From: Shewanella sp. GD04112
GTDB lineage: Bacteria; Pseudomonadota; Gammaproteobacteria; Enterobacterales; Shewanellaceae
Direction of reading: 5' to 3'
Assembly: GCF_029835735.1 (NCBI RefSeq)
Contig: NZ_JAOEAL010000001.1
Coordinates: 2,470,530-2,502,529 of the forward strand
Length of the DNA stretch: 32,000 nucleotides
Shown: positions 11,069 through 32,000 of the stretch, piece by piece
How the letters are laid out: each line of letters starts with the position of its first letter
How positions within the stretch are numbered: position 1 is the stretch's first letter
The notes under the pieces: model-generated
Databases searched by the model: none
What the model was told of the DNA's origin: nothing
What the model saw: the letters and a program-made list of their open reading frames with translations, nothing else
Program-made: the position numbers and the translations under genes

Positions 11069-11239
11069 ATGGCTAAATCACTGAACGAACTTAGAAAGAG
11101 GCTTAAGCCACAAGTGCAATTGGCTGCTAGAGCTAAAGCAGAAGAAATTCTCGCTGAAATGAGCATGAAAGATGTGACTAAATCGCGTGGTCATAATGAG
11201 GCTACTGTCGAATTTCTGATTCCAGAAAGAAAAAATTAG
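11069..11239 (+). pseudogene. Short XRE/HigA-like antitoxin N-terminal fragment (56 codons)
   Basis: Strong SD aaggaggttattATG. MAKSLNELRKRLKPQVQLAARAKAEEILAEM resembles the N-terminal leader of HTH antitoxins, but the ORF stops before any HTH could be encoded. Confidence 0.35.
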
Positions 11240-11399
11240 TGGCAAAAGAAATGGATAAAACTAGGTAGCGAAGTAGTGGTGATTCAACCAACTTGAAATT
11301 AATTTGCCCCTTTCTTTGTTTCGCATGACCAAGTTAGCTCAGCTTGGTATTGAACCGTTGACCTAATTTTAGTAATGCTACAAGTGCCTACTGTTCTAG

Positions 11400-11812: not shown

Positions 11813-11866
11813 TCCTCCACGCTTTTTTACTCAGTTTGTTTTCACAAGCCGTAGTGGAGTTATGAA

Positions 11867-12733: not shown

Positions 12734-12759
12734 GTAATGCCTGTTTTTGCTACATGTTA

Positions 12760-12808
12760 ATGTATACAGACTATACATCAATAAAAACCACAAGTATATT
12801 GGGTATAC
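12760..12808. promoter_or_regulatory. Two GTATAC-containing palindromes in the divergent promoter region (candidate operators)
   Basis: ATGTATAcagacTATACAT (12760-12778) and GTATAttgggTATAC (12794-12808). Both lie between the WYL gene start (12733) and the operon start (12910). Confidence 0.4.
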
Positions 12809-12909
12809 CACTTACCAAACTCAACTTACTAAATTTGCGATAGAAAAATTGGTATTCGAGAAACATGGTAAAAATAGTGATCTAAAACGAGGAGCTTGCG
12901 CAGTTTCCT

Positions 12910-14241: not shown

Positions 14242-15016
14242 TCATCTATTTACACACGCTCAAGACTCAAAGAAACAGTACCTTACACTAGATGATGTAA
14301 TTGATGACCCCCTATTCGCGGATGTAGATTATCGCCTTAGGGGCGGGGTAAACATTACTAGTGAAGATGACCGGTTACATACCTTTCTAGGAGAGACGGA
14401 GAGTGTGCTTCGCAAGTTTTACGGCAAGTTACACCTGGCTCTAGAAGTCACGCCTGAGAAAGTTTATTACCTAAGGCCACAGCGTCGTTCAAATGTTCCT
14501 ACGACCCGATTGAACCAATTAGAAATGGTTATGGGTCTAACGATAGTTGCAATGCAATGGGAAAAAAATGCGACTGATTTCGAATGGATCCCCGTTGATT
14601 TTCTTATTGAACGATTGAAGTCTCAGCTGTCGGACGAACGGTTCGCTGAGTTGTATCGCCGTAAGCCGGGCATTCAGACAGACCATGATGTAGGGCGTGT
14701 GAGAGAGGAAACGTTGAAGAGACTCTCTAGACTGTCACGTCTGAGTTTTATTAGGCTCAACAGAGATGAGCAGACTTTCTGGGCAACTAATGCGATCTAC
14801 AGGTTTATCGAACCTTTGAAAGGCTTGAGCAGCGAAGACGAGTTGCCAGGCCGCATAAGTTCGTTAATCCAAGAGGGTTTTCTTACCGACTCACCTTCGC
14901 CCAGAGAAGAGTTAAGAGACACGCCAAGAACAGAGTCTGAACATTGGTCATCAGAAGGCCTAACTATCGAAGGTGATACTCGCGATATGTTTGATGCGGA
15001 GGAATATGATGCGTAA
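14234..15016 (+). CDS. jetB: MukE-like KITE (JetB/MksE-class) subunit
   Basis: DPLFADVDYRLRGG...FYGKLHLALEVTPEKVYYLRPQRRSNVPTTRLNQLEMVMG parallels E. coli MukE NPLFPALDSALRSG...[40 protein letters not shown] (from memory). It has an acidic C-terminal tail. ATG 14234 overlaps the upstream stop (ATGACTGA). Confidence 0.75.
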   Translation: MTDHLFTHAQDSKKQYLTLDDVIDDPLFADVDYRLRGGVNITSEDDRLHTFLGETESVLRKFYGKLHLALEVTPEKVYYLRPQRRSNVPTTRLNQLEMVMGLTIVAMQWEKNATDFEWIPVDFLIERLKSQLSDERFAELYRRKPGIQTDHDVGRVREETLKRLSRLSRLSFIRLNRDEQTFWATNAIYRFIEPLKGLSSEDELPGRISSLIQEGFLTDSPSPREELRDTPRTESEHWSSEGLTIEGDTRDMFDAEEYDA

Positions 15017-18000: not shown

Positions 18001-19562
18001 TCGCTGACGATTACGAGCAAGCACAAAACGATCTTGCGAAAGAAGATGGAAACGTAAGTTCATTGCGTGAGAGGCACAAACAGAAACGTGTCATGCTCGA
18101 TGAGTTGAAGGTTCAGTTGAGAGAAAGCGAAGATAAAGCACGCAAAAACAAAGAGGTACATCTTAAGCTTCAATCGGAATATTCTGTGTTAGAAGAGCAG
18201 GTTGCGGAATCAAAACGTAGTTTGTCAAAGCTGACTTACCCTTATTGCGAAGGACTCGAAAAACAACTTTCACTCGATAGCGAAACGATATCTAAACGAT
18301 TGAGAGCGGCTCAAGAGCAATGTGAATCACTCCAACTTAAGCAAGTATCATTAACCGAACGCCATAACACCCTACTCAAGCAAGTAGAATCCCTACAGAG
18401 TACATCAGTGATTGCAGAAGAGGCGCGTGAAAATGCAAATGGTATAAAGCAAAAGGTGCTGGATGCTCTGCCTGCCGGAGCCACAAAACATAAGCTAGAG
18501 CAAGAAATGGACGTCTATTTTAAACTGATGCATGAAGGTGAGGCCGTCCAATACACTAATGGGATTTACGCAATATCTGGATTGGTCAATCGCTATGGTT
18601 TGAGTCGAGATGATGAGTTCTCCCAAAAAATAAATAGTTTTAATCTAGAGGGAGGGACCACCCTGCCTAGTCTTTGCCAGCTGCATAGTGACGCTATTTC
18701 TTTGTTTCGTCGGCAAGCCCGAGGGGACATTATTCGTAGTTCCGAGCCGACAGAGATGCTTACACAATTGGATAGTGCGTGTAGTCTCGCTAGGAGAACA
18801 CTTGAAAGCGCCGAAGAGCAGTTTCTCACAGATAGAAATGAACTAGGAAATGCCATTGCCCGTCGTGTACAGGATGAGCAGAAAGCCATAAGAAGGCTAA
18901 GTGCTGAAATGATAGGAATAAGCTTTGGGCAAGTTGCGGCTATTCGTCTAGTACCTAAAAGCGTCCCTCATTTCGAAGCTACTTTGAAGGCTTTGAGAGG
19001 AAGCGACGATGTCATGGACGATCTCTTCAATAATGCTGAAGATGTAGAAGAAGCGCTCGCAACACTATATCAAAAAACCACTGGTGGCCGGATCGAGGGA
19101 GAAAAGCTGCTTGACCATAAGAACTACATCAATGTGGTAACAGAAATCCAGAGAGTTGGTAGTGAAGAATTTGAGTTATTGGATGACAAAACACTTTCAA
19201 CAGGAGAGCGAATTGGCTCTGGATTGGTTGTCTTAATAGCAATTCTAAAAAACTGGGGACGGGTCTCACATGAAAAACAACCTTTCTTAATCCCGTTAGT
19301 AATGGATGAAGCATCACGTTTGGACTCCGACGCTCAGAGAACGGTGCACCAGTTGGCGGTAAAGACCGGAAGTCAGATTGTAATTGCCGCACCTGAGTCG
19401 CAAGGAAAGATATCAGGTGTTGGCTATCAACTTGTCAGAAGTGCTTCTAAAGCAGGTAACAAAGAGAGCCGTGTAATCATTAGTGGGATCCGGGATGCTG
19501 ACAGTTTAGGGATTGATGAAGAAGCATTTATCGATTCGGTTGTGAGTGGGGCGGCGCATTGA
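15006..19562 (+). CDS. jetC: MukB-like SMC ATPase (JetC/MksB-class), 1518 aa
   Basis: - SD GGAGGA precedes ATGATG at 15006.
- N-terminal head: IKSLSLVGVNGVSARTLDL, Walker A GKNGSGKTT (15141-15167), ALLPD.
- Very long coiled coils.
- Hinge-like VADLYSDIPLEEAGFTEAALGQLMCAIVVNDPS.
- C-terminal head: SFGQVAAIRL...LSTGERIGSG...LVMDEASRLD (D-E at 19305-19310)...QIVIAAPE...GYQLVR.
- Each motif matches MukB motifs as I recall them. Confidence 0.85.
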   Translation: MMRNYPYIKSLSLVGVNGVSARTLDLVNPHEHQTDRQYGTVVSLLGKNGSGKTTLLGTFMLALLPDIRSVSLGTSDNFTQTQKMQDAEMFERLGNPSLIGLEVVSRAGERALFIVRSERETGSRLKFDTFRVGLFDSLAPLDFLIVRNGNMVTPRTIDGIRDIAAEHGCRLQSFDKIDKYMLALFNDGILPRTFNRSNERYQLGQIFHSAMSGKRDQAIGRDLADFLMTHSRTNIKSVVDVLSGTMRKLRQTRDDLAHNSKDYAFFKELLEKSFTVSAKAWAQAEYNFSRADKEATSCRQDVSECKVSIEKSDQDLTECRSKLDTSVENRTSLEQESEQLKPRLASAVEGEIFYKQGKQASVSLLKKEAQLYESLSLSQLADEGADASRNKVEQANQDILDIQAQLADVQERFILLEKKAGQYRNAKSLLDSVKSWCGDSFELAKLKGMIEEYTAQSKQLALEADQLGNKLNSAENINEIHAKAASLIRRAGDSIDPNVAKNWFISTELRLEEERPLAVSLEQMRNGLSALKRNHRTVNRMLDRFKQAKLPRMPSNESEYQQLTEDRGEALESAKEVKASVDARYEDERHIQEELKIEVSRLKSLRTEWQNYQPAVARLYECFPDTQFTAEMLDGLIKNTQRELRSLRENNSRIESNIFSLKERILSLSNRETGSLETLQRFASDVGGVAVADLYSDIPLEEAGFTEAALGQLMCAIVVNDPSDAARTLLAEYGDNWPLPDVILMTVKNHSPDQLRSGGYDADLFFKDLSQEFVGADLDLNHNENDVPWVVLSEPFGGIRVSGVPTEPVLGKEARDKLIADLQIELNSKQTLFDSNDENISLLQSGLEQANRINVNPSLAFAVEPNVELKKQKLQQQGNKVADLYSQTLQATNRVKTLELQCSLLEQHADSSDLLDVNFDKEIMEAEEQIIRSEKAKKYVDRYGGTFSQIKQQYPKIREDYQSDIDTLKRQHQLAEQDLSNTNNRKRDLTSLNQVANHLADDYEQAQNDLAKEDGNVSSLRERHKQKRVMLDELKVQLRESEDKARKNKEVHLKLQSEYSVLEEQVAESKRSLSKLTYPYCEGLEKQLSLDSETISKRLRAAQEQCESLQLKQVSLTERHNTLLKQVESLQSTSVIAEEARENANGIKQKVLDALPAGATKHKLEQEMDVYFKLMHEGEAVQYTNGIYAISGLVNRYGLSRDDEFSQKINSFNLEGGTTLPSLCQLHSDAISLFRRQARGDIIRSSEPTEMLTQLDSACSLARRTLESAEEQFLTDRNELGNAIARRVQDEQKAIRRLSAEMIGISFGQVAAIRLVPKSVPHFEATLKALRGSDDVMDDLFNNAEDVEEALATLYQKTTGGRIEGEKLLDHKNYINVVTEIQRVGSEEFELLDDKTLSTGERIGSGLVVLIAILKNWGRVSHEKQPFLIPLVMDEASRLDSDAQRTVHQLAVKTGSQIVIAAPESQGKISGVGYQLVRSASKAGNKESRVIISGIRDADSLGIDEEAFIDSVVSGAAH

Positions 19563-20509
19563 TGCATGGACTACTGGAGGATGTAAAGTTAACACCTAAG
19601 CAGGCACTGGCACTTATTGATAAGCTTATTGAGCGCGGGAAAGTGTTGCCCAACCAGAGAGATAGTTTACTGATTGAGCGCCTTGAGCAACTTGGCATAG
19701 TGAAACGAGTGGGGAGTTACTGGCAGCTGTGTGAGCCCCAACGCATTGAGAGTGTTCGTAACCAAATAACGCAATATACTTTGCAAAAAAACAGGCCTGG
19801 TATCTTACGAAAGATGCCCGTTGTACATCATAAAAGTGCTGCTGCCTGGCGAGGACATAGCAAAAGTGGGCAAGGCGAGGCTCTTCAGAAAGGTCAACTG
19901 ATAAGTACAGACGATGTAGTACGGGTCCGCACTCAGAAGACCGGGTTCGTAATATACAGCGATAACGCCACGATTGATACTGACTTGGAGACTCTGCAAA
20001 GGACTGAAGTCAGCTTACCAGAACGGTTGTACAAAGACGCTCATGCGCCCTGTGTCGCTGGGGTAAAGTTGGTGTTGACTGTCGAAAACTTGGGCACATT
20101 TGTTGACTTCCCCATGGTGGATGGACTCGTATTGGTTTACTCATCAGGGAATAACTTTGCATCATCGGTTTGTTTTATCAAGCGCTTCTTGGAAGAGGTG
20201 ACCTGGGCACACTTCCCGGACCTTGATCCCAATGGTCTGATCATATCAACGCAAATGGCAGATACCCTCAACAAACCTTGCAATGTTTGGATTCCACCTC
20301 ATTGGGATAGGGTCCGAGCTCAGCCGCTGGTTTCTGGTAAAGGAAAAAAGGTATGGGGGGAAGCCCCTGCCTGCCCTGAAATCGCAAGTTTGCAGGAAAC
20401 AAGCCATTGGGTTGAGCAAGAGGTTCTCGTCTTAGATCAACGAAGCGTCAAAGCCGTCAGTGAGCTTGTTAGTGAGCCTAAGCTCCGGCTAATAACTCTT
20501 CAATACTAA
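19562..20509 (+). CDS. jetD: JetD/MksG-type Toprim (topoisomerase-VI-like) nuclease subunit, 315 aa
   Basis: The start overlaps the jetC stop (TGATG). Toprim signature: VLTVENLGTFVDF (Glu codon 20084-20086), WAHFPDLDPNGLII (DxD 20228-20236), then HWVEQEVL. The N-terminus looks winged-helix-like (LIDKLIERGKVL..LEQLGIVKRVGSYWQL). Confidence 0.7.
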   Translation: MHGLLEDVKLTPKQALALIDKLIERGKVLPNQRDSLLIERLEQLGIVKRVGSYWQLCEPQRIESVRNQITQYTLQKNRPGILRKMPVVHHKSAAAWRGHSKSGQGEALQKGQLISTDDVVRVRTQKTGFVIYSDNATIDTDLETLQRTEVSLPERLYKDAHAPCVAGVKLVLTVENLGTFVDFPMVDGLVLVYSSGNNFASSVCFIKRFLEEVTWAHFPDLDPNGLIISTQMADTLNKPCNVWIPPHWDRVRAQPLVSGKGKKVWGEAPACPEIASLQETSHWVEQEVLVLDQRSVKAVSELVSEPKLRLITLQY

Positions 20510-20699
20510 AGATTTTACGATTGACAGTTCAGGCGGCAGTTAATCAAACATTGTACTCGGCGAAGCTGATGTTCGTGCAGTGTGTCGACAATTCCGCTAC
20601 AGGGAAAGTCTCAATTCATTGCCTGGCGAACAATAGCCTAGCTATGCCCATAAGAAGCAGTTATCTGACTAGTTTACTTCTTAAGAATAAGGATACTTA

Positions 20700-22010
20700 A
20701 TGAGTATTGAGAAGTTTAGAAGCGTGGAGGAACTAAAACAGTTCTTCGAAGAAGGAGGTAACCCTTGGTTTGATGCAGAATTTTCTCCTCAGACTCAGAG
20801 TATCGTCGAAGCATTGGATGCAAAAGGAGCCTTTCTCAATAAGTGGTGGGTAAGGACCGCCATGGATTGGAAGTGTCCCGCCTGTAAAAGGACTAAGCCC
20901 CAAATAGCCAAACTAGATAATCGTAGATATGCCTCCTGCAAACTGGAGGAGCATCACGATCACATGAAGGATACGGTGCGCACGTTGTTCGAAGAAATAT
21001 CTTCGAACAGAGAAGTCGTTGTTGCAACTGAGCTAGCTAAGCGGTTTGCAATCAGGACGTCCTTTGCAATTTCCGCTTACGATAACACGGTGATTTGCGC
21101 GGATTGTAATAAAGCAGACGGTATTGCAAAACGGATGGTCAAAACTCACAGTGACTTTTCATACTCTCCAGCAGAAATTGGGCGATTTGTAAAACCATCA
21201 GATAATCGAGAGCATGAAATTGACGCGGATATCGCCAAGGAAATTTGGAACGAGAATCTGGAAACGTTCAATAAGCGTATGCAGTTGGCAAAAGTTATAG
21301 CGGAGTTGGCTGCCAGCGATTCACATTGGTATCAACCCTCAGAACCAACAGCCAAGCAAGTCAATGATTCTGCCAATTACAAGTTTAACTTGCGTGGATT
21401 AAGAGACCTTCACGATGATCCTGAAAAGCTTCTATACAATACAACGCCTTTCAAGGGAAACCACTCATCATGGAGATTGAATCCCAAGCCTTTCACAAGT
21501 ACGAGACCAACTGATGGACAAATAGCACATTTATCTAACACCAGGGGGCGGTACTGGAACAGGTACGACGACAGCTGGCAATGCCCATGTTGTGGTCGTT
21601 TAAAGCGGGAATGTCTTAAGCCGTCTAAAAATAACCCTTGGGTGTTTGAAGTAAAGGCCATTCTAGCTCATGATTCTGAGCATCAGTCTTTTGCTGAAGA
21701 AATTAAGGTGTGCAACGAATGTTTCAATGCTGCAAACCATCTTGGCCAGGAAGCAATAAAAGAAGCCAAAGAACAAGATGAGACGGTAGATGTATATTTT
21801 CCACATAGCTTGATACAACTGGAAGAGTTGAAGTCTGTTATAACGCCGAGATTACACTCCTCACATATCATTGATAATGACTTGGCTGAAAACGTGGTTC
21901 GCAATGCCATCAGGCGCATTATTGATGAAGACTATAACCAATCCCCAAAGCACAAGATGAAGCTGCAAGAACAGTTCAGTACAATGCTTTATGGTGGAAG
22001 TTGTGAATAG
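20700..22010 (+). CDS. Protein with two endonuclease-VII/HNH-like zinc modules (436 aa), otherwise unassigned
   Basis: SD aaggatacttaATG. Module 1: WKCPACKRTK...KLEEHHDHMKD...(about 47 aa)...VICADCNKADGIAKR. Module 2: WQCPCCGRLKREC...ILAHDSEHQSFAEEIKVCNECFNAANHLGQ. The layout CxxC...H.DH...CxxCN..(D/E)G is that of the T4 endonuclease VII branch of the HNH fold. Confidence 0.55.
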   Translation: MSIEKFRSVEELKQFFEEGGNPWFDAEFSPQTQSIVEALDAKGAFLNKWWVRTAMDWKCPACKRTKPQIAKLDNRRYASCKLEEHHDHMKDTVRTLFEEISSNREVVVATELAKRFAIRTSFAISAYDNTVICADCNKADGIAKRMVKTHSDFSYSPAEIGRFVKPSDNREHEIDADIAKEIWNENLETFNKRMQLAKVIAELAASDSHWYQPSEPTAKQVNDSANYKFNLRGLRDLHDDPEKLLYNTTPFKGNHSSWRLNPKPFTSTRPTDGQIAHLSNTRGRYWNRYDDSWQCPCCGRLKRECLKPSKNNPWVFEVKAILAHDSEHQSFAEEIKVCNECFNAANHLGQEAIKEAKEQDETVDVYFPHSLIQLEELKSVITPRLHSSHIIDNDLAENVVRNAIRRIIDEDYNQSPKHKMKLQEQFSTMLYGGSCE

Positions 22011-22164
22011 TTCAGCCTTCGCTAGACACGAATGCAGCGACTCCACTGTCTAATTTGATCAAATATTGTGAAGGTCCACTAGAACCGACTTTAAAAAAAA
22101 TCAGTGATTTATATGGGGATTACTAAAATTGGCCTTCTTTTGAGAATTACATGAGGGGAATGAA

Positions 22165-22530
<366 letters not shown>

Positions 22531-22857
22531 CTATGCCACTACACTCATATATTAGAACGTGAGAGCGTGGAGCGGATCGCTGCTCATCCTGGAAATCCGA
22601 TTGGCAATATTGTCGAACTCTGGGAAGAACAGGAAATCGGTGTGACTAAAGAAGCAAAGTTATTGAAGGTAATTGACCGCTTATTGCCATTCTTACATAA
22701 CATGACTAGCGAAGGCCAAGCTTGGAGGGATAATGGAATACATAAAGCCCAAGTGTTGAATATGCACCAATTTATCGAGAAGGAAAGTCCTGAAATTTTT
22801 TCATGGTTTGTTATACAGCTCGAATATGCCGTTGAACAAGGTTGGCTTAAAGCATGA
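22531..22857 (+). pseudogene. 3' fragment of an HD-domain (HD_3-type metal-dependent phosphohydrolase) gene
   Basis: ..IVELWEEQEIGVTKEAKLLKVIDRLLPFLHNMTSEGQAWRDNGIHKAQVLNMHQFIEKESPEIFSWFVIQLEYAVEQGWL matches the C-terminal half pattern of HD_3 proteins. The catalytic HD part is missing, and the frame is open right up to the IS3 terminus at 22530. Confidence 0.55.
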
Positions 22858-23065
22858 TCTTTCATTGGTTGTTTCTTGTCTATCCAGACTAGGCCCGTAA
22901 CTTGTCGATGCCCCATTCAAAGTTATCAACACGACTTGAGATGAGCATCACTAGCCTAATGTTGACCCAAACTAAGTAATGCGACAAAGTCCCCCTGTGT
23001 CAGGATTGTTGTCACCCCTAAATAATCATTATGTTTAAAGACAGGGTGCGGCAAAAGAGAACGAT

Positions 23066-23566
23066 ATGGCTCGGTATTCACCAGAACGTAAAGAAGCGAT
23101 CCTTAAAAAATTATTACCTCCTCACAACTTAACGGTCGCAGAGGTCGCTCGGGAAGAAGGCATCGCGGTGCAAACCTTGTATCATTGGCGAGATATTGCC
23201 AGAAAAGAAGGTCGCCCCGTGCCAGGTAAAACATTAACAGCCGATGATTGGTCGGCTGAAGCAAAACTTGCCGTGATTATTGAAACAGCGCCGCTGTCGG
23301 AAGCGGAGATAAACCAGTATTGCCGTGAAAAGGGCTTGTTCCGCGAGCAAGTACAGCAGTGGAAACAGGATTGTTTAGCTGGTTTTCAAACCTCAGAAGT
23401 ACAAACTAAAACCATTAAACAGCAGGCTAAGGCTGACAAAGCCGAAATCAAATCGCTGCAACGGGAATTGCGCTATAAGGAGAAAGCGCTGGCTGAAGCT
23501 GCTGCGTTACTGGTGCTCAGAAAAAAGCTCAATGCGCTCTGGGGGGACGACAGCGAGGAGAGCTAA
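23066..23566 (+). CDS. IS3-family transposase OrfA (HTH + leucine zipper)
   Basis: MARYSPERKEAILKKLL..LTVAEVAREEGIAVQTLYHWR is an HTH, followed by a coiled-coil tail KAEIKSLQRELRYKEKALAEAAALLVLRKKL. Confidence 0.8.
   Translation: MARYSPERKEAILKKLLPPHNLTVAEVAREEGIAVQTLYHWRDIARKEGRPVPGKTLTADDWSAEAKLAVIIETAPLSEAEINQYCREKGLFREQVQQWKQDCLAGFQTSEVQTKTIKQQAKADKAEIKSLQRELRYKEKALAEAAALLVLRKKLNALWGDDSEES
23521..23527 (+). promoter_or_regulatory. Programmed -1 ribosomal frameshift heptamer A AAA AAG
   Basis: The heptamer is in the X XXY YYZ register of orfA (codons AGA AAA AAG). The -1 frame is open from here into orfB (..AQCALGGRQRGELTPLPERIALI..). Confidence 0.7.
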
Positions 23567-23571
23567 CCCCC

Positions 23572-24621
23572 TTGCCTGAGCGCATAGCATTGATTGCCTT
23601 AATCCAAGAGGCCTATACCAATGGTGCTCGCCTTTATAAGGCTTGTGCTGAAACGGGCCTCAGTAAGCGTACCTATCGACGTTGGTATCGAGAAGGTCAA
23701 GTGCAAGCTGATTTAAGGCCAACAGCAGCTCGACCAGAGCCAGCAAATAAACTCGAAGAACATGAGCGACAACAGATATTAAGTGTGTGCAATCAAGCGG
23801 AGTACGCCAGCTTACCCCCGTCGCAAATTGTGCCAACATTATTAGATAACGGGATTTATATCGCCTCGGAATCCAGCTTCTACAGAGTGTTAAATGCTCA
23901 TGGTCAACTTAACCATCGTGGCCGCACTCAGGCTGCGGTCAATCGAAGCAAACCGTTGAGTTATCGGGCAGATGGGCCGAATCAAGTGTGGTCATGGGAC
24001 ATCACTTATTTAGCCTCAATCGTCAAAGGCCAGTTCTACTATTTGTACCTGTTTGAAGATATTTACAGTAGAAAAATAGTGGGTTACGAAGTTCATGAGC
24101 AAGAAAGTGGGGAATATGCCGCTGCGCTAATCCAACGCTGTCTGTTACGCGAGCAATGCTTTAACACGCCATTAGTGCTGCATTCTGATAATGGGGCGCC
24201 GATGAAGTCACTGACCATGAAAGCCAAGCTGGAAGAGCTTGGTATTACGGCATCATTAAGTCGGCCGCGGGTGAGTAATGACAACCCCTTTTCAGAGTCG
24301 TTATTTAAAACGTTGAAATACCGCCCACAGTGGCCGGCATCAGGTTTTAGCTGCTTAGCAACAGCAAGAGAATGGGTGGAAAAGTTTGTAACCTGGTACA
24401 ACGATGAGCATAAACACAGCCAGCTAAATTTTGTCTCACCAGGGCAACGTCATGCACTGCAAGATGGCGCTATTTTAGCGAAGCGCAAGAAAGTGCTTGA
24501 GGCGGCGAAGGAAAGAAAACCGATGCGTTGGTCTACAGAGATCAGAAATTGTGAAGCGGTTGGCGCTGTAACACTCAACCCAGATAAGGCACCAGAAGAA
24601 GGCGTAATAAATGCAGCTTAA
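23572..24621 (+). CDS. IS3-family transposase OrfB (DDE integrase core; expressed as an OrfAB fusion)
   Basis: WSWDITYL (D), LVLHSDNGAPM (D), SNDNPFSESLFKTLKYR (E); rve-type core. The frame is -1 relative to orfA. Confidence 0.8.
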   Translation: MPERIALIALIQEAYTNGARLYKACAETGLSKRTYRRWYREGQVQADLRPTAARPEPANKLEEHERQQILSVCNQAEYASLPPSQIVPTLLDNGIYIASESSFYRVLNAHGQLNHRGRTQAAVNRSKPLSYRADGPNQVWSWDITYLASIVKGQFYYLYLFEDIYSRKIVGYEVHEQESGEYAAALIQRCLLREQCFNTPLVLHSDNGAPMKSLTMKAKLEELGITASLSRPRVSNDNPFSESLFKTLKYRPQWPASGFSCLATAREWVEKFVTWYNDEHKHSQLNFVSPGQRHALQDGAILAKRKKVLEAAKERKPMRWSTEIRNCEAVGAVTLNPDKAPEEGVINAA

Positions 24622-24764
24622 TATTTAAACAAAGAGTGACAACTATCTTGAAAAACACCGAAGTCGCCGACTCTAACTATGGCGATTCTGCGCCGCTTAC
24701 TACTAATAATCATTAAGTTAATTATTCTTAAATATCTGAAAGGAAGCACCTATGATAGGCATTA

Positions 24765-25106
24765 TTGCCGATTGTCTTGGTTTACCTGGGCGTCCTACTC
24801 TTTTTAAGCCAGATTCTGCTATGGAAAATGCCTGCTGGGGGCAAGAAAACAATGGTTTCTCTGCTGCTGTTGCCGCTGCTGGCAGGCCTAAGCTTTATTG
24901 ATGAAATATGGGCCAGGCACCAGTTTCAGGCCTTATGCGCAGAAGATAATTTACTAAGCTACCAGGCGGATAAGGTCAGGGGGCAAGCGGTCAGCACCAA
25001 AGCGCTGATCCGGAACAATATCAGCGCAGCCGTGCCTATCGTTGAGCATACCCGGTACTGGTTTGTAGCTGGCACTGATGACATCGTGATCACCAGCAAA
25101 AGTTAG
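24765..25106 (+). CDS. Hypothetical small membrane protein (2 predicted TM helices); doubtful start (TTG)
   Basis: Hydrophobic N-terminus IVLVYLGVLLFLSQILLW and LLLLPLLAGLSF. It is more GC-rich than the DNA downstream. A competing ATG at 24752 with a good SD lies in another frame. The ORF ends at a TAG that is in frame with the next ORF. Confidence 0.25.
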   Translation: MPIVLVYLGVLLFLSQILLWKMPAGGKKTMVSLLLLPLLAGLSFIDEIWARHQFQALCAEDNLLSYQADKVRGQAVSTKALIRNNISAAVPIVEHTRYWFVAGTDDIVITSKS

Positions 25107-26018
25107 TTAGAAAATGGAAATTTATCTCCTCAAGATGCTGAGAAGCAATTAAGCGACATCTTAGTTCCGTTATTAAATGAAGATGGGTATAACATTGTTC
25201 AGACTCCTTTTCGCGGTGACATTGGAGTAGATTTTATTGCTGAGAAGCAACTTTCCACTAACCTAGAGCAAGTGGGAATCGAATATAAGCACTATAAATC
25301 TGCTGTAGGTGTCGATGCTGTTCGCCGGTTACTGGGAACAACATTTACTCACAACTTTGACCGTTTAATTTTAGTAACCAAATCTCGTTTTACTAAAGCT
25401 GCCCTTGAGCTTGCGAATTCGGCTTTACCAGTCAAGCTTGAACTAATTGACTTAGATGCTCTAAGAGCGTGGGTGCAGAGAGCAGAAAAAACTGAAGACT
25501 ATGACTTCGAACTAGTAAATATTATTCGTTCCAATATTAGCGAGCGGTTAGCAGTGCTAATAGCTAAAAATCCGCGATATCTAATGGATATTGAATGGAG
25601 AGAGCTTGAGTATGTTATTCAAACCGTTTTTGAAGAGCTAGGGTTCAGCGCAGAACTTACCCCAGGAAGCAAAGATGGCGGTAAAGATTTAGTGCTTACC
25701 TGTAGGATTTCTGGGCAAGATCATACATATTACGTAGAGCTGAAGCACTGGAGATCCCAACAAAAAGTAGGTGGACAAGCTGCTAGAGGTTTCCTGAAAG
25801 TGATTGTTAATGAAGAAGTGAATGGTGGGTTATTTCTTTCTTCATATGGTTATTGTGAGAATGCGTTTGAAATGTTGACTGAAATTGACAGAAAACATTT
25901 AAAGTTCGGCGATCAGAAAAAAATCGTTACATTATGTACACAATACGTTAAGTCTAAATCTGGTATTTGGTCTCCTACTAGCGGTTTATCGGAAGTATTG
26001 TTTGAACAAACTATATAA
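25107..26018 (+). pseudogene. Tandem Mrr-like (PD-(D/E)xK restriction-endonuclease fold) domain protein with no credible start for domain 1
   Basis: Domain 1: GYNIVQTPFRGDIGVDFIAEK...VGIEYKHYKS..VGVDAVRRLLG...LILVTKSRFTKAA. Domain 2: LGFSAELTPGSKDGGKDLVLT...YYVELKHWRS..VGGQAARGFL..GGLFLSSYGY. The frame is open from 25107, immediately after TAG 25104-25106. The first in-frame start (GTG 25272) falls inside the E-x-K motif of domain 1. Confidence 0.5.
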
Positions 26019-26046
26019 ATTCGCCTAACAAGGCGCTCAAGAATGA

Positions 26047-26069
26047 CAAAAAACGCTTGGCGTTTTTTG
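26047..26069. terminator. Bidirectional terminator-like palindrome (A6-stem-loop-T6)
   Basis: caaaaaacgc ttg gcgttttttg, 29 nt after the Mrr-like stop codon. The GC core of the stem is short. Confidence 0.4.
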
Positions 26070-26277
26070 CATCTTAGCTTTGCGTTAACCCATAGAAATT
26101 TTTATCCGAAAATGTCGAGTTAGAGTTAAGGCTTTAACTCGGAATTGTCCAATTACTTGATAGAGCATTTAATACAAATGAAAGAATAGGGCGGAATAAA
26201 AGTAGTCACAAAATTAGTGTTTTAAGATGCTTATTACATTGACAAATGCCATACATTTTTTACAAGGAAGCATCTTC

Positions 26278-26748
26278 ATGATATCAGTAACTTTTCACGA
26301 AAACTCGAGGCGTACACGTCAATTCAAGTCTGAAAATGGAGCTTTGAAGGCCGTATGGAAATGGCTTAAAGCAACAGAAGACGATAACGCCTATGCAGTG
26401 ATTATTGGTCCTATGTATTCTGAGCCAAGAGTCATCAAAGGCTGGCAAGAACTTCCATTCAGTGAACCTGAAAATTTAGACTTTTTGCAGACTAAGGAAT
26501 GGCGTCGACTGAGACAACAGGCCTTTGAGTTATATGGAAACTTTTGTGCCTGCTGTGGTAGAGGTCCAAAAGATGGCGTAGTGCTTCATGTAGATCATAA
26601 AAAACCTCGTTCGAAATATCCAAAACTTCAAGATGACATCAACAATCTTCAGATTCTTTGTGAAGAACACAACCAAATGAAATCCAATACATCTGAGCGC
26701 GATTGGGCTCAGTGGTGCCAAGCCAACTCTGTACGTGGCACTAAATAG
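26278..26748 (+). CDS. HNH endonuclease (small, stand-alone)
   Basis: Classical motif CACCGRGPKDGVVLHVDHKKPRSKYP....NLQILCEEHNQMKSN. The ATG at 26278 follows aaggaag; the track start at 26227 is less likely. Confidence 0.8.
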   Translation: MISVTFHENSRRTRQFKSENGALKAVWKWLKATEDDNAYAVIIGPMYSEPRVIKGWQELPFSEPENLDFLQTKEWRRLRQQAFELYGNFCACCGRGPKDGVVLHVDHKKPRSKYPKLQDDINNLQILCEEHNQMKSNTSERDWAQWCQANSVRGTK

Positions 26749-26834
26749 TCCAACACAAGGGTTAGTGAGGCACGGGCACGTGTCGAAGTATTCATAAATC
26801 AGAGCGACTGTTGTTATAAACACTCAGACACAAA

Positions 26835-26904
26835 ATTCTCACGTATTTCAGAATAGAGCACCTAAATCAGAATAGTGAGAACATTCTGATTCTCAGTGAG
26901 AATT
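26835..26904. repeat. Cluster of the same about 24-bp units as at 10436-10537, here in opposed orientations (mini-palindromic block)
   Basis: attctcacgtatttcagaatagagc (26835-26859, + orientation). atcagaatagtgagaac is a partial copy. cattctgattctcagtgagaat (26882-26903) is in inverted orientation and is part of IR-R. Confidence 0.8.
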
Positions 26905-26908
26905 GTCA
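26882..26908 (-). repeat. Right terminal inverted repeat (IR-R) of the accessory segment
   Basis: Its reverse complement, TGACAATTCTCACTGAGAATCAGAATG, matches 10431-10457 at 25/27. It ends ..CA at 26907-26908 and is followed by CGCA (26909-26912), the same tetranucleotide that precedes IR-L. Confidence 0.8.
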
Positions 26909-26944
26909 CGCATAGGGAATAGTGCTTTCCATATTTACTCACAT

Positions 26945-27178
26945 TCAATTTAACATAATATACATTGTGCGCATCCTTTTTTTTGAGGAATGTTCACACA
27001 GCCTTTTTGAGTCGGCCAGTATTAAGAGAACGTGCCATATAGGGAACATGATCACGATTGAGACATAGAACTCAGCCATAGATTTAAACTCAATTTCAGA
27101 TTCAATAGGAACCCAAAGAGTAACTTTAGTTAGACCAGAGGCGCGCTTCTTAGCTTCATACTTAGAGTTGCGACTCAT
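26945..27178 (-). CDS. Small ORF with a ribbon-helix-helix-like N-terminus whose 3' end reads through dif
   Basis: MSRNSKYEAKKRASGLTKVTLWVPIESEIEFKSMAEF resembles RHH/DUF3018-type small regulators. The last about 10 codons (..KKRMRTMYIMLN) are encoded by the dif sequence itself. Confidence 0.4.
   Translation of the reverse strand: MSRNSKYEAKKRASGLTKVTLWVPIESEIEFKSMAEFYVSIVIMFPIWHVLLILADSKRLCEHSSKKRMRTMYIMLN
26948..26975 (-). other. dif: dif site (XerC/XerD chromosome-dimer resolution site), doubling as the prophage junction
   Basis: The plus strand reads ATTTAACATAA TATACA TTGTGCGCATC. The reverse complement of E. coli dif (GGTGCGCATAATGTATATTATGTTAAAT, from memory) is ATTTAACATAATATACATTATGCGCACC, giving 26/28 identity. 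Confidence 0.8.
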
Positions 27179-27348
27179 GGCGTCACCAGTGACGGGGCAT
27201 TCTTAGCACCTTCAACAGGTATCAACTCGCAAAAGGAATTAATAAAATCGAAATAAGTGTTATGAGTATAGATAACACCGAGAGCAAAACCTAAGAAAAC
27301 AAAAACAAGTAAAACAAAAACAACAAAAAGTATTTCTTGAATATCCAT
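27175..27348 (-). CDS. Small phage membrane protein (57 aa)
   Basis: One strongly hydrophobic helix (ILFVVFVLLVFVFLGFALGVIY). ATG 27348 follows ggag. It overlaps the next ORF start (ATGA-type). Confidence 0.35.
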   Translation of the reverse strand: MDIQEILFVVFVLLVFVFLGFALGVIYTHNTYFDFINSFCELIPVEGAKNAPSLVTP

Positions 27349-27368
27349 AAATATAATCTCCAATTATT

Positions 27369-27400
27369 GGGAGGGGGCGCTCCGCTTGCCTCCCCCTCCC
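27369..27400 (-). terminator. GC-rich hairpin immediately after the zot-like stop codon
   Basis: gggaggggg (27369-27377) pairs with ccccctccc (27392-27400) across a 14-nt loop. There is no clean U tract on the minus strand, so a terminator or attenuator role is tentative. Confidence 0.35.
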
Positions 27401-28740
27401 TACCTATTTGCAAGCGAGTATTCACGGTCAGATTGATTAGTTTCAGGTTTGACCTTAATCAAGGGCTGACAAGTGATAAAAGTAGTAAAGTCATTAAATT
27501 TAAGTCTGGCTAAACATTCAGTTATAGGTGAGACAACAAATCCAACCGAACTAGGTAAAAAAACCTCATCAGTAACGGGATTGTAAAAGGAATAATCATA
27601 ATGAACTAAGCCATTGGATTTTTTTACATACTGGGAACCTGAAATATAAACATCCTTTGTAGCATCAGAAACGAACTTAGTTAAAAGCTGTGTTTCAGCA
27701 TCATCAAGTAAAGATGATGATTTAGGCAAAAGAGAAACTTTTGACTTGGGCTCATTAGGGGATGCAGTCTCAGGCGTTTGGAGAACTGAGTCAGGGACAG
27801 CAGAGGTTTTATCAAAAAACAATGTATTGGCAAATGAGTAAACAGAAAAAACAACAACAAAAATAAGAATAATCAAAATATAAAATATCTTGGGCATCTT
27901 AAATTTATGGGTATGCAGTTCAGCACTAAAATAAGAGCCATAGAAATTCGTTGGCCTCTTAATTAATGACTTTTGGCAATTTTTGACATCGTGATAATCA
28001 TCAACATCAAAACTTTTTGAGTTCTGATAACGAGCGACACGGTTAGAGTTAAACGCATTATGATAGTGAACATGGCGATTGACTAAACGCCTTACGTTAC
28101 TATCTAAAAGCATTCTATCCTGTGTAATTAAATGTATATCGTAACCATCATGGCGGTGAGTCTCAAATTTTGAAATATGAGGTGGAACTGTAGAACCCAC
28201 AGGACGAGGCGGGAAAAATTGCTGACACTCATCAATTAGGATAATGCTCTGCTTTGGTAGATTGAACCAATCCTTAGGGTTAGCAAAATGAGTAAAATGT
28301 AAATTCAAGTGCTCAAGGTGTGAGAACTCAACCTTATCGTAAGGCATATTGCTTAGGAACTCATCAAGCAGAGCCGTCTGCTTTGATGAATAAAGTTTTT
28401 TAACCCAAAACAGCCAAGTGTCTAGATGGTTGGCCGTATTGTAATAAGGCTCAAGCCAAGGAACGTCAGACAGTTGAATCAAATCACCGTTATCGTGAAC
28501 CCGTTTGATAATTTTACGAATGCGCTTTAGTGCCTGTTTGTTCTTCAAACGGTACATATAAAGACCGTAGAACCAGCCAGAAAAACTAGAGGCAACCTCA
28601 AAATCAAGCATCAACAACTTGATGTTATTATAAAAAATTGGCCTAGTGCCATTATTAGCGCCAACAAGATAAGCAATGGTATTCAGCGATTTAGACGCGC
28701 CCGGCTTCCCTGTAACTAACTCTAACATTATGCGCTCCAA
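27400..28740 (-). CDS. Zot/pI-like phage assembly ATPase
   Basis: N-terminal P-loop ELVTGKPGASKS, a Walker-B-like IILIDECQQFF, a single central TM helix (IFYILIILIFVVVFSVYSF), then a periplasmic C-terminal domain. This is the architecture of filamentous-phage gene I/Zot proteins. Confidence 0.8.
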   Translation of the reverse strand: MERIMLELVTGKPGASKSLNTIAYLVGANNGTRPIFYNNIKLLMLDFEVASSFSGWFYGLYMYRLKNKQALKRIRKIIKRVHDNGDLIQLSDVPWLEPYYNTANHLDTWLFWVKKLYSSKQTALLDEFLSNMPYDKVEFSHLEHLNLHFTHFANPKDWFNLPKQSIILIDECQQFFPPRPVGSTVPPHISKFETHRHDGYDIHLITQDRMLLDSNVRRLVNRHVHYHNAFNSNRVARYQNSKSFDVDDYHDVKNCQKSLIKRPTNFYGSYFSAELHTHKFKMPKIFYILIILIFVVVFSVYSFANTLFFDKTSAVPDSVLQTPETASPNEPKSKVSLLPKSSSLLDDAETQLLTKFVSDATKDVYISGSQYVKKSNGLVHYDYSFYNPVTDEVFLPSSVGFVVSPITECLARLKFNDFTTFITCQPLIKVKPETNQSDREYSLANR

Positions 28741-29078
28741 TCAACAGGTGATTTGTCGCCCGGCTTACGCCAAACAAGCTGCCTAGAGTAGCCGCTTTTG
28801 GAGACTCCTTTTAATACCATAAGCGCAACGCCGCTAGACATTGCAATATTTAAAGCCGTATCAATCCCAAGTAGGTGAATAAAAGTGGCTATATGAGGAA
28901 ATATAATTGAAGATGCAGAAGCATTTAAACGGTTAATTATTTCGTCAAAAATAAAACCTACTCCCGCATAAGTAACTGTACCAAAGCCAATAGCAACACC
29001 AATACGAGCAACAGAAGCGGTAATAAATTGACCAAGGAAAGGAAAAATAGAAGCAAGTAATAAAGGTATGAATTGCAT
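28728..29078 (-). CDS. pVI-like minor coat/membrane protein
   Basis: 116-aa polytopic hydrophobic protein located between the pIII-like and Zot-like genes, with overlapping stop/start. Assignment is positional only. Confidence 0.5.
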   Translation of the reverse strand: MQFIPLLLASIFPFLGQFITASVARIGVAIGFGTVTYAGVGFIFDEIINRLNASASSIIFPHIATFIHLLGIDTALNIAMSSGVALMVLKGVSKSGYSRQLVWRKPGDKSPVDWSA

Positions 29079-29087
29079 ATTTACCCC

Positions 29088-30659
29088 TTAGTGATATTTG
29101 ACAATCATTAAACCAGAAGCAACAGAAGCAAACGCAATTAAGAAGAACTTAATAACAGTTGCCAAGTCACAGAATGGTGATAAGTCGATAGTAAAGGTGG
29201 TAATTTTGGCATCAACAACATAAGGAGGTGGACAGGTATCAGAACCACCAAAATTAACACCGTTAGAAGAATTGTAATGCTCAGTAAATTGTTTTATGTC
29301 TACAGTGCCAGCATCTAAATTTTTAATATCAGAATCTTCACTATTTATAAAATCAGTAAGTGAATTTGTGGCAGCATTAACAGATTCAGAGGCAGAAAGT
29401 TCATCGGCAATAGTTTTACAACGGGACTCCCACTCCTTACGAGCGATATAGCATTGTGGGCTATTGGTAGAGCATACAAAAGTTTCGCAACCGTTCTCAG
29501 TAATAGCATCAGGGTCAGAGCCAGAGCCATCGCCAATCTTTCCAATGGCATCGACAATACTTTGCTCGGATTTACCAATAGCGCCTTCAATATCACGCAT
29601 ACGAACAGCAATATCTGTAAGGTTACTGTTTGCATCTAAAAGCTGCTCGACAACATCGGAATTATCAGAAGATGCACCACCAACAGAGCCTTTAATATCG
29701 GACAGAGTACTATTTACTTTCATTAACTCATTATATTGAGCCATCATCATTTCTAGCTTCTGCATTTCGAGTTGTAAGTCACCACCACCACCTCCACCTC
29801 CACCTTGAGCAATACGGCCTAATAAATCAGTAATAGTATTTGAAAGAGTATTATTTATAGCAGGGATTGAGGCAGAATTATTATTTATATTAGAAGAATC
29901 GGAGCTAATTTGACCTAACTTGTCTGCCATATAACCCAAAACTTGCATATATTCACCAGTAGAAGATGAACCGCCGCCAGATTGGGCTTTAATAGAATCT
30001 CGAATTTCAGCTAGGATAACTTGATTCTGTGAAACCCATTGCGTTTGGTATTGAATATCCGAGCGAACGCCACTCACACCACTGGCAAGAGCATTGCCTA
30101 AACCATCGGTACGATTAATTAAATCAGTGAACTGGTTAAAGTTCTGCCATCTTAATTGGTCAATAGATGTTTTAGTGTAAGAGGATTGTCTCGCACCCTT
30201 TAAAAGTGCGTCATAAATAACGCCTAAATCCGTGTGAATATCCTTAAGTTCAGTTGTAAAAGTAGTTGGCACCCAAGGATAAGGCGATAAGTTATCAGAA
30301 CTAGGGTCGGGAAAATTTGGGTTAGGATTTAGGTCAGGGTCTGGATTAGTACCACCGCCTCCGTCTTGACAGTTGTTAACGTCAGTTTCAAAGTAAACCA
30401 TCCAAACAGTGCAAAATGGGTTTTGCGGGTCGCCAGTTGCACAAACTAAATTTGTGCCCTTCCATGAAAAATCGTTTGAATCACATTGGGTATGGAAAAA
30501 AGCATTAGCGTCAGACTCAGCAGTAGCGCCAGTAAAATCAAAGGAAATTTCAACGCCAGGAGTTGCAGGTGGGGAATAAGCGAACGCAGGAGAACTTAAA
30601 CAAGCTAAAAGAAGATACGCCGCACGCAATCTGTAAGAACGAGAAGGACTAAAAGCCAT
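29088..30659 (-). CDS. pIII-like adsorption/minor coat protein
   Basis: Signal peptide ..LLACLSSPAFA. Cys-containing N-terminal domain. Pro/Asn/Asp-rich linker (GGGTNPDPDLNPNPNFPDPS). A Gly8 run. C-terminal membrane anchor (FFLIAFASVASGLMIVKY). It sits directly after the major coat gene. Confidence 0.65.
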   Translation of the reverse strand: MAFSPSRSYRLRAAYLLLACLSSPAFAYSPPATPGVEISFDFTGATAESDANAFFHTQCDSNDFSWKGTNLVCATGDPQNPFCTVWMVYFETDVNNCQDGGGGTNPDPDLNPNPNFPDPSSDNLSPYPWVPTTFTTELKDIHTDLGVIYDALLKGARQSSYTKTSIDQLRWQNFNQFTDLINRTDGLGNALASGVSGVRSDIQYQTQWVSQNQVILAEIRDSIKAQSGGGSSSTGEYMQVLGYMADKLGQISSDSSNINNNSASIPAINNTLSNTITDLLGRIAQGGGGGGGGDLQLEMQKLEMMMAQYNELMKVNSTLSDIKGSVGGASSDNSDVVEQLLDANSNLTDIAVRMRDIEGAIGKSEQSIVDAIGKIGDGSGSDPDAITENGCETFVCSTNSPQCYIARKEWESRCKTIADELSASESVNAATNSLTDFINSEDSDIKNLDAGTVDIKQFTEHYNSSNGVNFGGSDTCPPPYVVDAKITTFTIDLSPFCDLATVIKFFLIAFASVASGLMIVKYH

Positions 30660-30729
30660 ATTAAATCCTGTAATGTGATAAGCATAAAACCCCTAAGGAG
30701 GGGCAAGCCCCTCACAGAGAAAACGACTA

Positions 30730-30933
30730 TTAGCCGAAGATTGCGCCTTTAGCCCATTTAAAAACGACCGCGATAGCAGCAAGGCCAAGCATGGCACCAC
30801 CGACAGCAGTTAACGCAGCAGAACCATCGGTAGTAATCGCTGTTGTAGCAGCAGTCACATCGATAGCAGCACTAGCAGAAGAAGCAGCAACGGCAGAACC
30901 TAAAGCCACAGCGGATACAAGGTACTTTTTCAT
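30730..30933 (-). CDS. Major coat protein (pVIII/Cep-like)
   Basis: 67 aa. Signal peptide MKKYLVSAVALGSAVAASSASA. The mature part of about 45 aa has an acidic/neutral N-terminus, a hydrophobic core and a basic C-terminus (..VVFKWAKGAIFG). Confidence 0.8.
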   Translation of the reverse strand: MKKYLVSAVALGSAVAASSASAAIDVTAATTAITTDGSAALTAVGGAMLGLAAIAVVFKWAKGAIFG

Positions 30934-30948
30934 AAATCACCTATTTAG

Positions 30949-31164
30949 TTAGAAGCCGATTTGACGGCGGACGAGTTTTATAACAAATGCAATTGCGTAG
31001 AGTCCCGCAATAGCACTAAACAAAGCAAAGACCTCGGGCTGAGTGATTTGATTATCAAGCTGTTTAGCTTCAACAAGTAGATAACCGTCACAAGGGTCAG
31101 CGGTAGATACCTGTAAAAGAGTACCGCTTAGGCCGTTGGGAACCTCAACAACACAGAGAGCCAT
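30949..31164 (-). CDS. Small hydrophobic phage protein (pVII/pIX-position minor coat candidate)
   Basis: 71 aa with a C-terminal TM helix (VFALFSAIAGLYAIAFVIKLV). Assignment is positional only. Confidence 0.4.
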   Translation of the reverse strand: MALCVVEVPNGLSGTLLQVSTADPCDGYLLVEAKQLDNQITQPEVFALFSAIAGLYAIAFVIKLVRRQIGF

Positions 31165-31176
31165 TGCTTTGAATCC

Positions 31177-31497
31177 TTACGCCTTGCGAACAGCAGTAGG
31201 CGCTTCAAAAAGATGGAAGCCGTTAATAGAAACGTGCTTGCCTTCAGCATTAGCAAAAGACAATTCTTTATATTCGATTGAAAGAGTAATCCGCTGGTCA
31301 ACGGAAGCCTTCAAAGTCTCAATAGTTTTATTATCTTTTACAAGAGCCTCTGAAACATGAACATCTAATATCTGTGAAGGTGAAGATGCTAAAAAACGGA
31401 AAACACCAACATCAACAGATTCACCAGTCTGGTAATTTTTGATTTTTGGTTTAATTTGAATATCAGTTAAATCGGGGATTCTGCCTTCAATTTTCAT
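31177..31497 (-). CDS. Candidate ssDNA-binding protein (gene V position)
   Basis: 106-aa soluble, beta-rich-looking ORF immediately downstream of the replication gene, with SD aaaggaaatacaaaATG. Assigned by size and position only. Confidence 0.45.
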   Translation of the reverse strand: MKIEGRIPDLTDIQIKPKIKNYQTGESVDVGVFRFLASSPSQILDVHVSEALVKDNKTIETLKASVDQRITLSIEYKELSFANAEGKHVSINGFHLFEAPTAVRKA

Positions 31498-31556
31498 TTT
31501 GTATTTCCTTTCAGTTAAAAAAATGGGTCGGGACAGTTATTGACACGAGTCCAAGG

Positions 31557-32000
31557 CTAATGTCGAAACACCATAGCGCTCGCTTCGCTCGCTGGTGTTT
31601 CATCATTAGCTAAAGCATCAAGCCATAAAGCTTGCATTTCTTCATACTCCTGCACATGGCGCTCATATTCGGCATAGTCCTGTTCGGCCATACGTTGATA
31701 TTCGCGCTCCATTTCGAGAATGTCGAAAATATCAACAACGCCAGACATGACTTGCTTACGGGCTGCTATGTACTCCTCTTTGTTGACAAGCTTCCAATTT
31801 TTGAAGCGGGTAGCCTTGAAAACGCCGTGAAAAAGAACGCCATTAACGCGAGCGTGAGCAGCATCGCCATAGCGGGTTTTTGCATGTTCTGGCGCATCAA
31901 AAAGTTTGGAGATAACCGCGGGAACGGCATAATGGGTTTTTACAGTTTGGTCGGCGCGGCGAACAAAAATACCGCCCATGGCCATGCAGAAAGCGCCCCA
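31557..32000 (-). CDS. Phage replication-initiation protein (gene II/RstA-like), C-terminal part only; 5' end lies outside the window
   Basis: The minus-strand frame is open from the window edge (..WGAFCMAMGGIFVRRADQ..) to the stop at 31557. It is the first gene of the phage module. Assignment is mostly positional. Confidence 0.45.
   Translation of the reverse strand, partial: WGAFCMAMGGIFVRRADQTVKTHYAVPAVISKLFDAPEHAKTRYGDAAHARVNGVLFHGVFKATRFKNWKLVNKEEYIAARKQVMSGVVDIFDILEMEREYQRMAEQDYAEYERHVQEYEEMQALWLDALANDETPASEASAMVFRH

Follow-up and report, generated by a model that had tools for sequence, protein, structure and literature searches.

The dif site of Shewanella sp. GD04112 was probably re-formed by CTXphi-type integration of a Dolos-like filamentous phage

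The 32,000-nt stretch of Shewanella sp. GD04112 DNA analyzed here (the window) carries a near-consensus dif site followed directly by the genes of a filamentous phage, and we consider it likely that this site is the working dif of the strain, restored at the XerD-side end of an IMEX of the CTXphi type. A prophage related to Shewanella phage Dolos lies between the original XerC arm of the host, which is beyond the window, and the host overlap and XerD arm, which are within it. If the route proposed below is correct, integration through a folded single-stranded attP that hijacks XerC, well known from V. cholerae, extends to the inoviruses of Shewanella.

A dif site probably at the chromosome terminus

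The 28-mer singled out by the original prediction is found at exactly 26948-26975 on the plus strand and, read as its reverse complement (GATGCGCACAATGTATATTATGTTAAAT), departs from E. coli dif (GGTGCGCATAATGTATATTATGTTAAAT) at 2 positions as claimed, both of them in the XerC arm. Read on the minus strand, GATGCGCACAA-TGTATA-TTATGTTAAAT has the complete 11-6-11 architecture of a dif site, with an overlap and an XerD arm that match E. coli perfectly. Scanned with E. coli dif and allowing 3 mismatches or fewer, the window yields the 28-mer as its sole match, and dinucleotide-preserving shuffles produced none (0/100). By position the site is intergenic, and it is present in a single copy within the 32,000 nt.

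Related genomes bear on whether such a site is the dif of the chromosome. The 21-kb loci of many S. xiamenensis-group genomes, fetched through homologs of a tyrosine recombinase gene that neighbors the site, are mostly unoccupied, and in ten-plus related Shewanella genomes the orthologous unoccupied site reads ACTGCG(C/T)ACAA-TGTATA-TTATGTTAAAT. The order at these empty loci is ccoNOQP, an HD-GYP regulator, the 431-aa recombinase, 36 bp, dif, about 290 bp, fdhD-fdhE-fdnI-fdnH-fdnG, a gluconolactonase and GH43, and the stretch from fdhE to GH43 corresponds to window positions 653-10119 reversed, at 92-93% nucleotide identity. The dif site is the sole dif-like sequence per 21-kb locus, at an orthologous position, in more than 15 relatives. 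In complete chromosomes the empty site is found at about 2.41 of 5.09 Mb (AP025014.1) and at 2.77 of 4.83 Mb (CP079718.1), that is, mid-chromosome. The dif of S. oneidensis MR-1 has been placed at position 2,476,928 of 4,969,795, 13,202 bp from the cumulative GC-skew maximum, with the sequence ACTGCGCACAATGTATATTATGTTAAAT (PMC2731167), to which the empty-site sequence of the relatives is identical; the S. baltica dif begins GCTGCGCACAATG (PMC3025954 supplement).

Orthology and the literature, rather than local GC skew or KOPS, support the predicted identity of this site as the dimer-resolution dif of the chromosome, located at the terminus. Local GC skew shows no sign change in the window or in the 21-kb empty-site loci, and KOPS (GGGNAGGG) are too sparse to inform, with 1 in the window (9813, + strand, toward dif) and 0 in the loci of relatives. 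A reader might take these uninformative local signals, together with a scan that covered the window and the relatives’ loci, as room for a chance or secondary dif-like sequence that is neither the dimer-resolution site nor the terminus, but we give this reading almost no weight, given the 0/100 shuffles, the orthology to the only dif-like site in the relatives’ loci, the exact agreement of its overlap and XerD arm with the dif published for MR-1 at the GC-skew terminus, and the mid-chromosome position in complete genomes.

The fdn operon had likewise been predicted to lie at the chromosome terminus, and here the synteny of the empty sites and the identity to MR-1 dif agree. The fdnGHI genes of MR-1 lie near oriC, which at first cast doubt on this placement; the doubt was dropped because empty-site synteny puts this fdn operon beside dif and the cco operon.

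Between fdhE and dif, GD04112 carries a 16.8-kb island in place of the 1.16-kb fdhD and intergenic stretch of the relatives, with homology ending at 10119 and resuming at 26946, so that the island abuts the XerD arm directly. Its Wadjet/MksBEF-like set comprises MukF-like (443 aa), MukE-like (270 aa), MukB-like (1529 aa) and JetD-like (316 aa) proteins, and the island also holds a 436-aa ORF with no assigned function (see Table 1 for the remaining genes). An origin of the island as an old IMEX was rejected, as the window scan showed no second dif-like site flanking or inside it. The island is strain-specific and of defense type, and it does not belong to the IMEX array.

Table 1. Features of the window and of the corresponding loci in relatives (positions are those of the window unless a contig is named)
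Feature	Position	Strand	Basis or remarks
fdnG-fdnH-fdnI-fdhE	4661..10120	+	Pfam; XerD side of dif; 92-93% identity and same order in complete Shewanella chromosomes
Strain-specific island, 16.8 kb	10120..26945	+	XerD side of dif; host context, outside the IMEX
BrxR/WYL regulator	11867-12811	-	Domain match
Divergent Wadjet/MksBEF-like genes	12910-20509		Domain matches
IS3-family element	23066-24621		Source of the DDE transposase match
Mrr-like nuclease	25272-26018		
HNH nuclease	26227-26748		
XerD-binding arm TTATGTTAAAT	26948..26958	-	Host origin; perfect match to E. coli, MR-1 and empty-site arm
Central overlap TGTATA, 6 bp	26959..26964	-	Host origin; same as empty-site dif of relatives and MR-1 dif
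XerC-binding arm GATGCGCACAA	26965..26975	-	Phage attP site 1 origin; same as Dolos replicative form and metagenomic relatives
Left-hand 5 kb of Dolos-like inovirus prophage	26976..32000	-	Pfam/PHROG matches, Dolos identity, Logan contigs
Small ORFs	26945-27178 and 27175-27363	-	Prophage
Zot/pI	27400-28728	-	Pfam/PHROG
DUF2523/pVI-like	28728-29078	-	Pfam/PHROG
pIII-like, 523 aa	29088-30659	-	Pfam/PHROG
Coat protein B	30730-30933	-	Pfam/PHROG
ORF	30949-31164	-	Prophage
ssDNA-binding protein	31177-31497	-	Pfam/PHROG
Phage_GPA-type replication endonuclease, C-terminal part	31557 to beyond 32000	-	Pfam/PHROG
Reciprocal junction	S. morhuae, L005		...AAAGCTGCGCACAA|TGTAACCTAGCGTTATGTTGAGG...
Reciprocal junction	Metagenome contig L010		...AAAACTGCGCACAA|TGTGATAACGTTATGTTGAGGG...
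Recombinase gene	L016 10001-11296 (and L015-L024, L031-L040)		
Recombinase gene	L005 7167-8459; L028 6001-7290; L029 10001-11326; L043 12198-13493		

An integrase-less relative of phage Dolos

Inovirus genes on the minus strand begin immediately to the right of the site, where a filamentous prophage had been predicted. The prophage is about 80% identical in nucleotide sequence to Shewanella phage Dolos (OP867012) and shares its gene order, with a Rep protein that is 93% identical and the same attP module, in which the XerC arm of site 1 and its flank are identical. The Logan contigs L002 (8257 bp) and L003 are 100% identical to window positions 26962-32000 and hold the remaining 3.2 kb of the phage. 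The predicted lack of an integrase also stands: there is no tyrosine or serine recombinase in the window, where the sole “integrase core” match is the DDE transposase of the IS3 element, and none among the 11-12 genes of Dolos, L002, L009 and L011, whose phage genomes span 8.1-8.3 kb. The ORFs adjacent to attP have no informative Pfam/PHROG function. No phage-borne recombinase with att sites of its own, the mark of an integrase-dependent prophage, was found, and the absence of an integrase combined with a dif-like attP bears out the assignment to the IMEX class. By gene content, nucleotide identity and placement, then, the prophage is an integrase-less relative of Dolos that is inserted exactly at dif.

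The last small phage ORF (26945-27178) has lost its usual stop, and its frame runs through the XerC arm and the entire dif into host DNA. It matches phrog_11804 over residues 1-38 only, and the read-through is probably incidental.

Hybrid junctions on the two sides of the phage

The native XerC arm of the host at empty sites differs from that of the window, which carries GATGCGCACAA preceded by CTCAAAAAAAAG. The same arm with the same adjoining CTCAAAAAAAAG is found in attP site 1 of the non-integrated Dolos replicative form and of metagenomic relatives. The overlap of phage site 1 reads TGTGATAACG or TGTGTTAAACG, and only TGT is common with the host TGTATA. Compared in this way, the window site is evidently a hybrid, with the XerC arm and the adjoining AAAAAAAAG from the phage and the overlap and XerD arm from the host. 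The XerC arm being phage-donated, the two apparent mismatches to E. coli dif are the footprint of the last IMEX and not strain divergence.

The reciprocal junction, in which the host arm is joined to phage overlap, loop and site 2, is seen in relatives: in S. morhuae (L005), in the metagenome contig L010, where the fragment of the host recombinase agrees with the S. xiamenensis-group protein at 134 of 140 positions, and in L039, which has both junctions on one contig. The phage-arm side of the insertion is therefore seen in the window and the host-arm side in relatives only. Together the two junction types bracket the crossover, with the outer XerC arm on one side and the third base of the overlap on the other, and this is where XerC cuts. 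The shared overlap sequence between attP site 1 and dif is limited to TGT, on the XerC side, which would be compatible with an XerC-only exchange. Site 2 of this phage lies at L002 39-66, about 8.2 kb to the right of dif.

A CTXphi-type attP module

The complete attP module is present in Dolos, L009, L010 and L011. Site 1 consists of the XerC arm GATGCGCACAA, a 10-12 nt overlap starting with TGT, and the XerD-like arm TTATGTTGAGG. The inverted site 2, about 95 nt downstream, reads CCGTAACATAA, 6 nt, TTGTGCGCGTC, with arms TTATGTTACGG, 6 nt, and GACGCGCACAA read on the other strand. Folded as single-stranded DNA, the region is predicted to form a long forked hairpin, with XerC arm paired to XerC arm, XerD arm to XerD arm, and an asymmetric overlap; compared with shuffles, the folds score z = -6.3 and -5.1. 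These folds were made on close relatives, since L002 begins inside the attP loop and is without about 85 nt of its own attP, namely the overlap of site 1 and the beginning of the loop. In an alignment fold, 22 of 60 pairs show compensatory changes, and these include XerC-arm positions at which both strands switch jointly from V. cholerae pre-CTX to the phages of Shewanella, in step with the host dif.

The homology to CTX became apparent only after the pre-CTX element KP972568.1 had been reached through Rep-protein similarity, the phage Rep being about 50% identical to its RstA-like protein; blastn of the attP against the phage collection returned Dolos as the sole match. The attP of KP972568.1 reads AGTGCGTATTA GGTGGTGCGGCA TTATGTTGAGG, 88 nt, CCGTAACATAA TGCCCC TAATACGCACT, and the Shewanella attP aligns with it along its whole length, with both XerD arms identical and loop segments alignable. 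In both the window and L039, the phage (+) strand and the top strand of dif are collinear, a requirement for single-strand integration. The module thus has two inverted dif-like sites and, in the (+) single strand, a predicted forked hairpin with an unpaired overlap, as in a CTXphi-type attP.

The likeness to CTXphi and pre-CTXphi is extensive: no integrase, integration at dif, a pair of inverted dif-like sites spaced by about 90 nt, a forked hairpin whose overlap is bulged, identical XerD arms (TTATGTTGAGG and TTATGTTACGG), a partly alignable loop, a new dif on the XerD side, tandem arrays and the related Rep. The Shewanella phages differ from CTXphi in that their XerC arms are re-tuned on both strands to the Shewanella dif (GCGCACAA instead of GCGTATTA), in that the site-1 strand has an overlap of 10-12 nt that begins with TGT, and in that their structural genes are Dolos/fs2-like and not those of the CTX core; toxin genes are absent. 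Across genera, then, the attP module is homologous, and its XerC arms co-evolve with the host dif.

An alternative that shares much of this evidence is integration of the VGJphi type, in which the double-stranded replicative form would recombine with dif through site 1 alone, by XerC exchange and replication, and site 2 would be irrelevant. VGJphi-type IMEX (VGJphi, f237) are likewise filamentous, lack an integrase, and undergo an XerC-initiated exchange at dif that replication completes. This route predicts the same two junction sequences that we observe, so the junctions alone cannot separate a single-stranded hairpin from a double-stranded substrate, and site 1 does have recognizable XerC and XerD arms. 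As a duplex, however, site 1 would have a spacer of 10-12 bp as opposed to 6-7, and site 2 is kept in every relative at a constant distance, with changes that compensate those in site 1, within a module that is homologous in its entirety to a CTXphi-type attP. VGJphi itself has one dsDNA attP, paired throughout and with an overlap of 6-7 bp, and next to it XafV, a combination that the Shewanella phages lack by sequence: they have two inverted sites and no ORF136/XafV-like sequence, the attP-adjacent ORF showing no similarity to VGJphi ORF136/XafV (BLASTP E = 5.5). We regard the VGJphi-type route as improbable and favor the CTXphi-type route.

In the phage variant of L002 only, the site-2 XerC arm belongs in addition to another inverted repeat, of 10 bp (L002 55-105; TGCGCGTCCC ... 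GGGACGCGCA), which could compete with the attP hairpin or serve as a terminator.

A predicted route of integration and tandem copies

For CTXphi and VGJphi, basal XerC activity has been described as giving a pseudo-Holliday junction that XerD cannot resolve and that replication converts into a completed integration, and each IMEX newcomer brings a new dif on the XerD side, from which arrays arise (bioRxiv 10.64898/2026.06.12.731946). The anatomy of the Shewanella locus, its junctions, the homology of its attP and the covariation within it are read directly from the sequences compared, whereas for catalysis by XerC and XerD and for the use of single-stranded DNA we reason by homology with CTXphi. 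In the route that we propose, sites 1 and 2 of the packaged (+) single strand would pair into a forked hairpin, in which duplex XerC and XerD arms flank a bulged overlap. Host XerC would then cut the site-1 strand after the XerC arm and swap it for the dif top strand, the TGT common to both overlaps easing the exchange, and the mismatch in the remainder of the overlap would stop XerD from completing the reaction. Replication would convert this pseudo-Holliday junction into a prophage with host-XerC-arm|phage-overlap at its far end and phage-XerC-arm|host-overlap+XerD-arm at its near end. If so, the near end would be a new and fully canonical dif, which could still resolve chromosome dimers and accept the next IMEX, and tandem arrays would be the expected outcome.

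The GD04112 prophage is itself probably present in tandem copies. An identical Rep protein is annotated twice in this genome, on a 4.88-Mb contig (MDH0448714.1 and MDH0448725.1), and the two accessions, 11 numbers apart, indicate two tandem copies. L002 ends inside dif after ...GGATGCGCACAATGT, at the point where a fork between “host” and “next copy” would be expected, and L002 and the S. morhuae phage contig L004 break at the same base within dif, after GCGCACAATGT. Elsewhere, L009 1-16906 holds a tandem of two Dolos-like genomes that differ from each other (pIII of 489 versus 523 aa), an arrangement for which a chimeric assembly is possible, and in L010 a second copy starts after the first (8825-8951). 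The tandem genomes of L009 and L010 are consistent with successive integrations into a re-formed dif.

One published observation counts against the CTXphi-type reading, namely that Dolos, the only cultured relative, is reported not to integrate in S. oneidensis MR-1 (bioRxiv 10.1101/2023.11.28.569023), in contrast to the integrated phage of the window. Dolos has a complete CTX-type attP (L001 6561-6711), but its site 2 has GACGAGCACAA instead of GACGCGCACAA, which places a C:T mismatch in the XerC-arm stem, and this mismatch may explain the lack of integration. The Dolos phage/satellite model would thereby gain both a predicted lysogenic route and, in a single XerC-arm-stem mismatch, a testable reason for its apparent failure to integrate.

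A host tyrosine recombinase beside dif

It had been foreseen that a tyrosine or serine integrase just outside the window would speak against an IMEX, and a tyrosine recombinase of about 430 aa does adjoin the far junction in relatives; it is, however, a host gene that is found at empty sites too, and so it leaves the IMEX assignment in place. The gene is conserved across Shewanella at species-like distances (62-100% identity), and the Oceanimonas pelagia homolog is again beside cco, 78 bp from dif. Within the S. xiamenensis group and in S. morhuae, the 3′ end of the gene points at dif and stops 36-100 bp short of the XerC arm. The gene occupies the XerD side, 0.3-1 kb away and likewise with its 3′ end toward dif, in S. 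piezotolerans WP3 and an IMG isolate contig. Its side, XerC or XerD, thus varies with the species, and the orientation of dif relative to the gene flips. No sequence relative of the recombinase was found in the PDB.

It is nevertheless worth asking if this 431-aa recombinase, instead of or together with XerCD, catalyzes the integration of the phage. Its gene ends very close to the XerC arm in the species just named, the R-K-HxxR-H-Y catalytic residues are retained, and it adjoins dif-integrated phages in several species, including SW1 in WP3. Against this, it is present at empty sites, is inherited in a core-like manner and is not phage-borne, and a 61%-identical homolog in Marinobacterium has no dif within 5 kb. 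The attP arms, moreover, imitate those bound by XerC and XerD, and they share homology with the attP of pre-CTX, which belongs to the CTXphi group and whose integration in V. cholerae is described as XerCD-dependent (bioRxiv 10.64898/2026.06.12.731946). We therefore think it very improbable that this enzyme integrates the phage, and catalysis by XerCD remains our preferred reading. As a phage integrase in the ordinary sense it was rejected outright, being present at empty sites, conserved across Shewanella and Oceanimonas, and absent from the circular Dolos genome.

A broader and improbable idea is that the recombinase, with its intact catalytic residues, joins in recombination at dif as a third Xer-like partner, as a factor in IMEX integration or excision, or as the cause of the dif flips. 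If it acts at dif, the Shewanella IMEX hotspot would not be purely XerCD.

Other elements at the same dif

The original prediction took the terminus to be a hotspot for such elements, and among relatives at least 4 different elements occupy the same dif, alongside the defense island and the conserved recombinase gene; the Shewanella terminus is a busy integration hotspot. The inovirus SW1 of S. piezotolerans WP3 is flanked by 13-bp repeats, GAATGCGCACAAT, in a paper that does not name them as dif (PMC3411601), and these repeats correspond to the dif XerC arm. Like the window phage, SW1 is an inovirus of Shewanella that encodes a Phage_GPA-type Rep and is integrated next to this recombinase gene, but it comes from another lineage, in which Zot has 382 aa and an HTH repressor is present, and the WP3 dif is inverted relative to the recombinase gene.

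In L039 (11335-11730, 19034-19061) a different inovirus backbone with a Phage_CRI-type Rep carries the same attP module as the Dolos family, and the module therefore looks exchangeable; the right junction of this element has an extra 247-bp direct repeat that contains a second site 1. L033 and L040 (11335-21296) hold a tailless PM2-like element at the same dif, with a P2_N/P2_C spike and a REP_ORF2-G2P Rep. Its junction, ACTGCGCACAA TGTATA|GATCGTTAAAG, retains the host overlap, which implies a crossover on the XerD side and a different IMEX mode. L022 carries another attP at the same dif.

The XerC arm of the empty sites is itself polymorphic, ACTGCGTACAA versus ACTGCGCACAA (L015-L024 and L031-L038, at about 11332). 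The T variant is the arm borne by the L039 phage, and some “empty” sites may therefore bear the footprint of past IMEX turnover.
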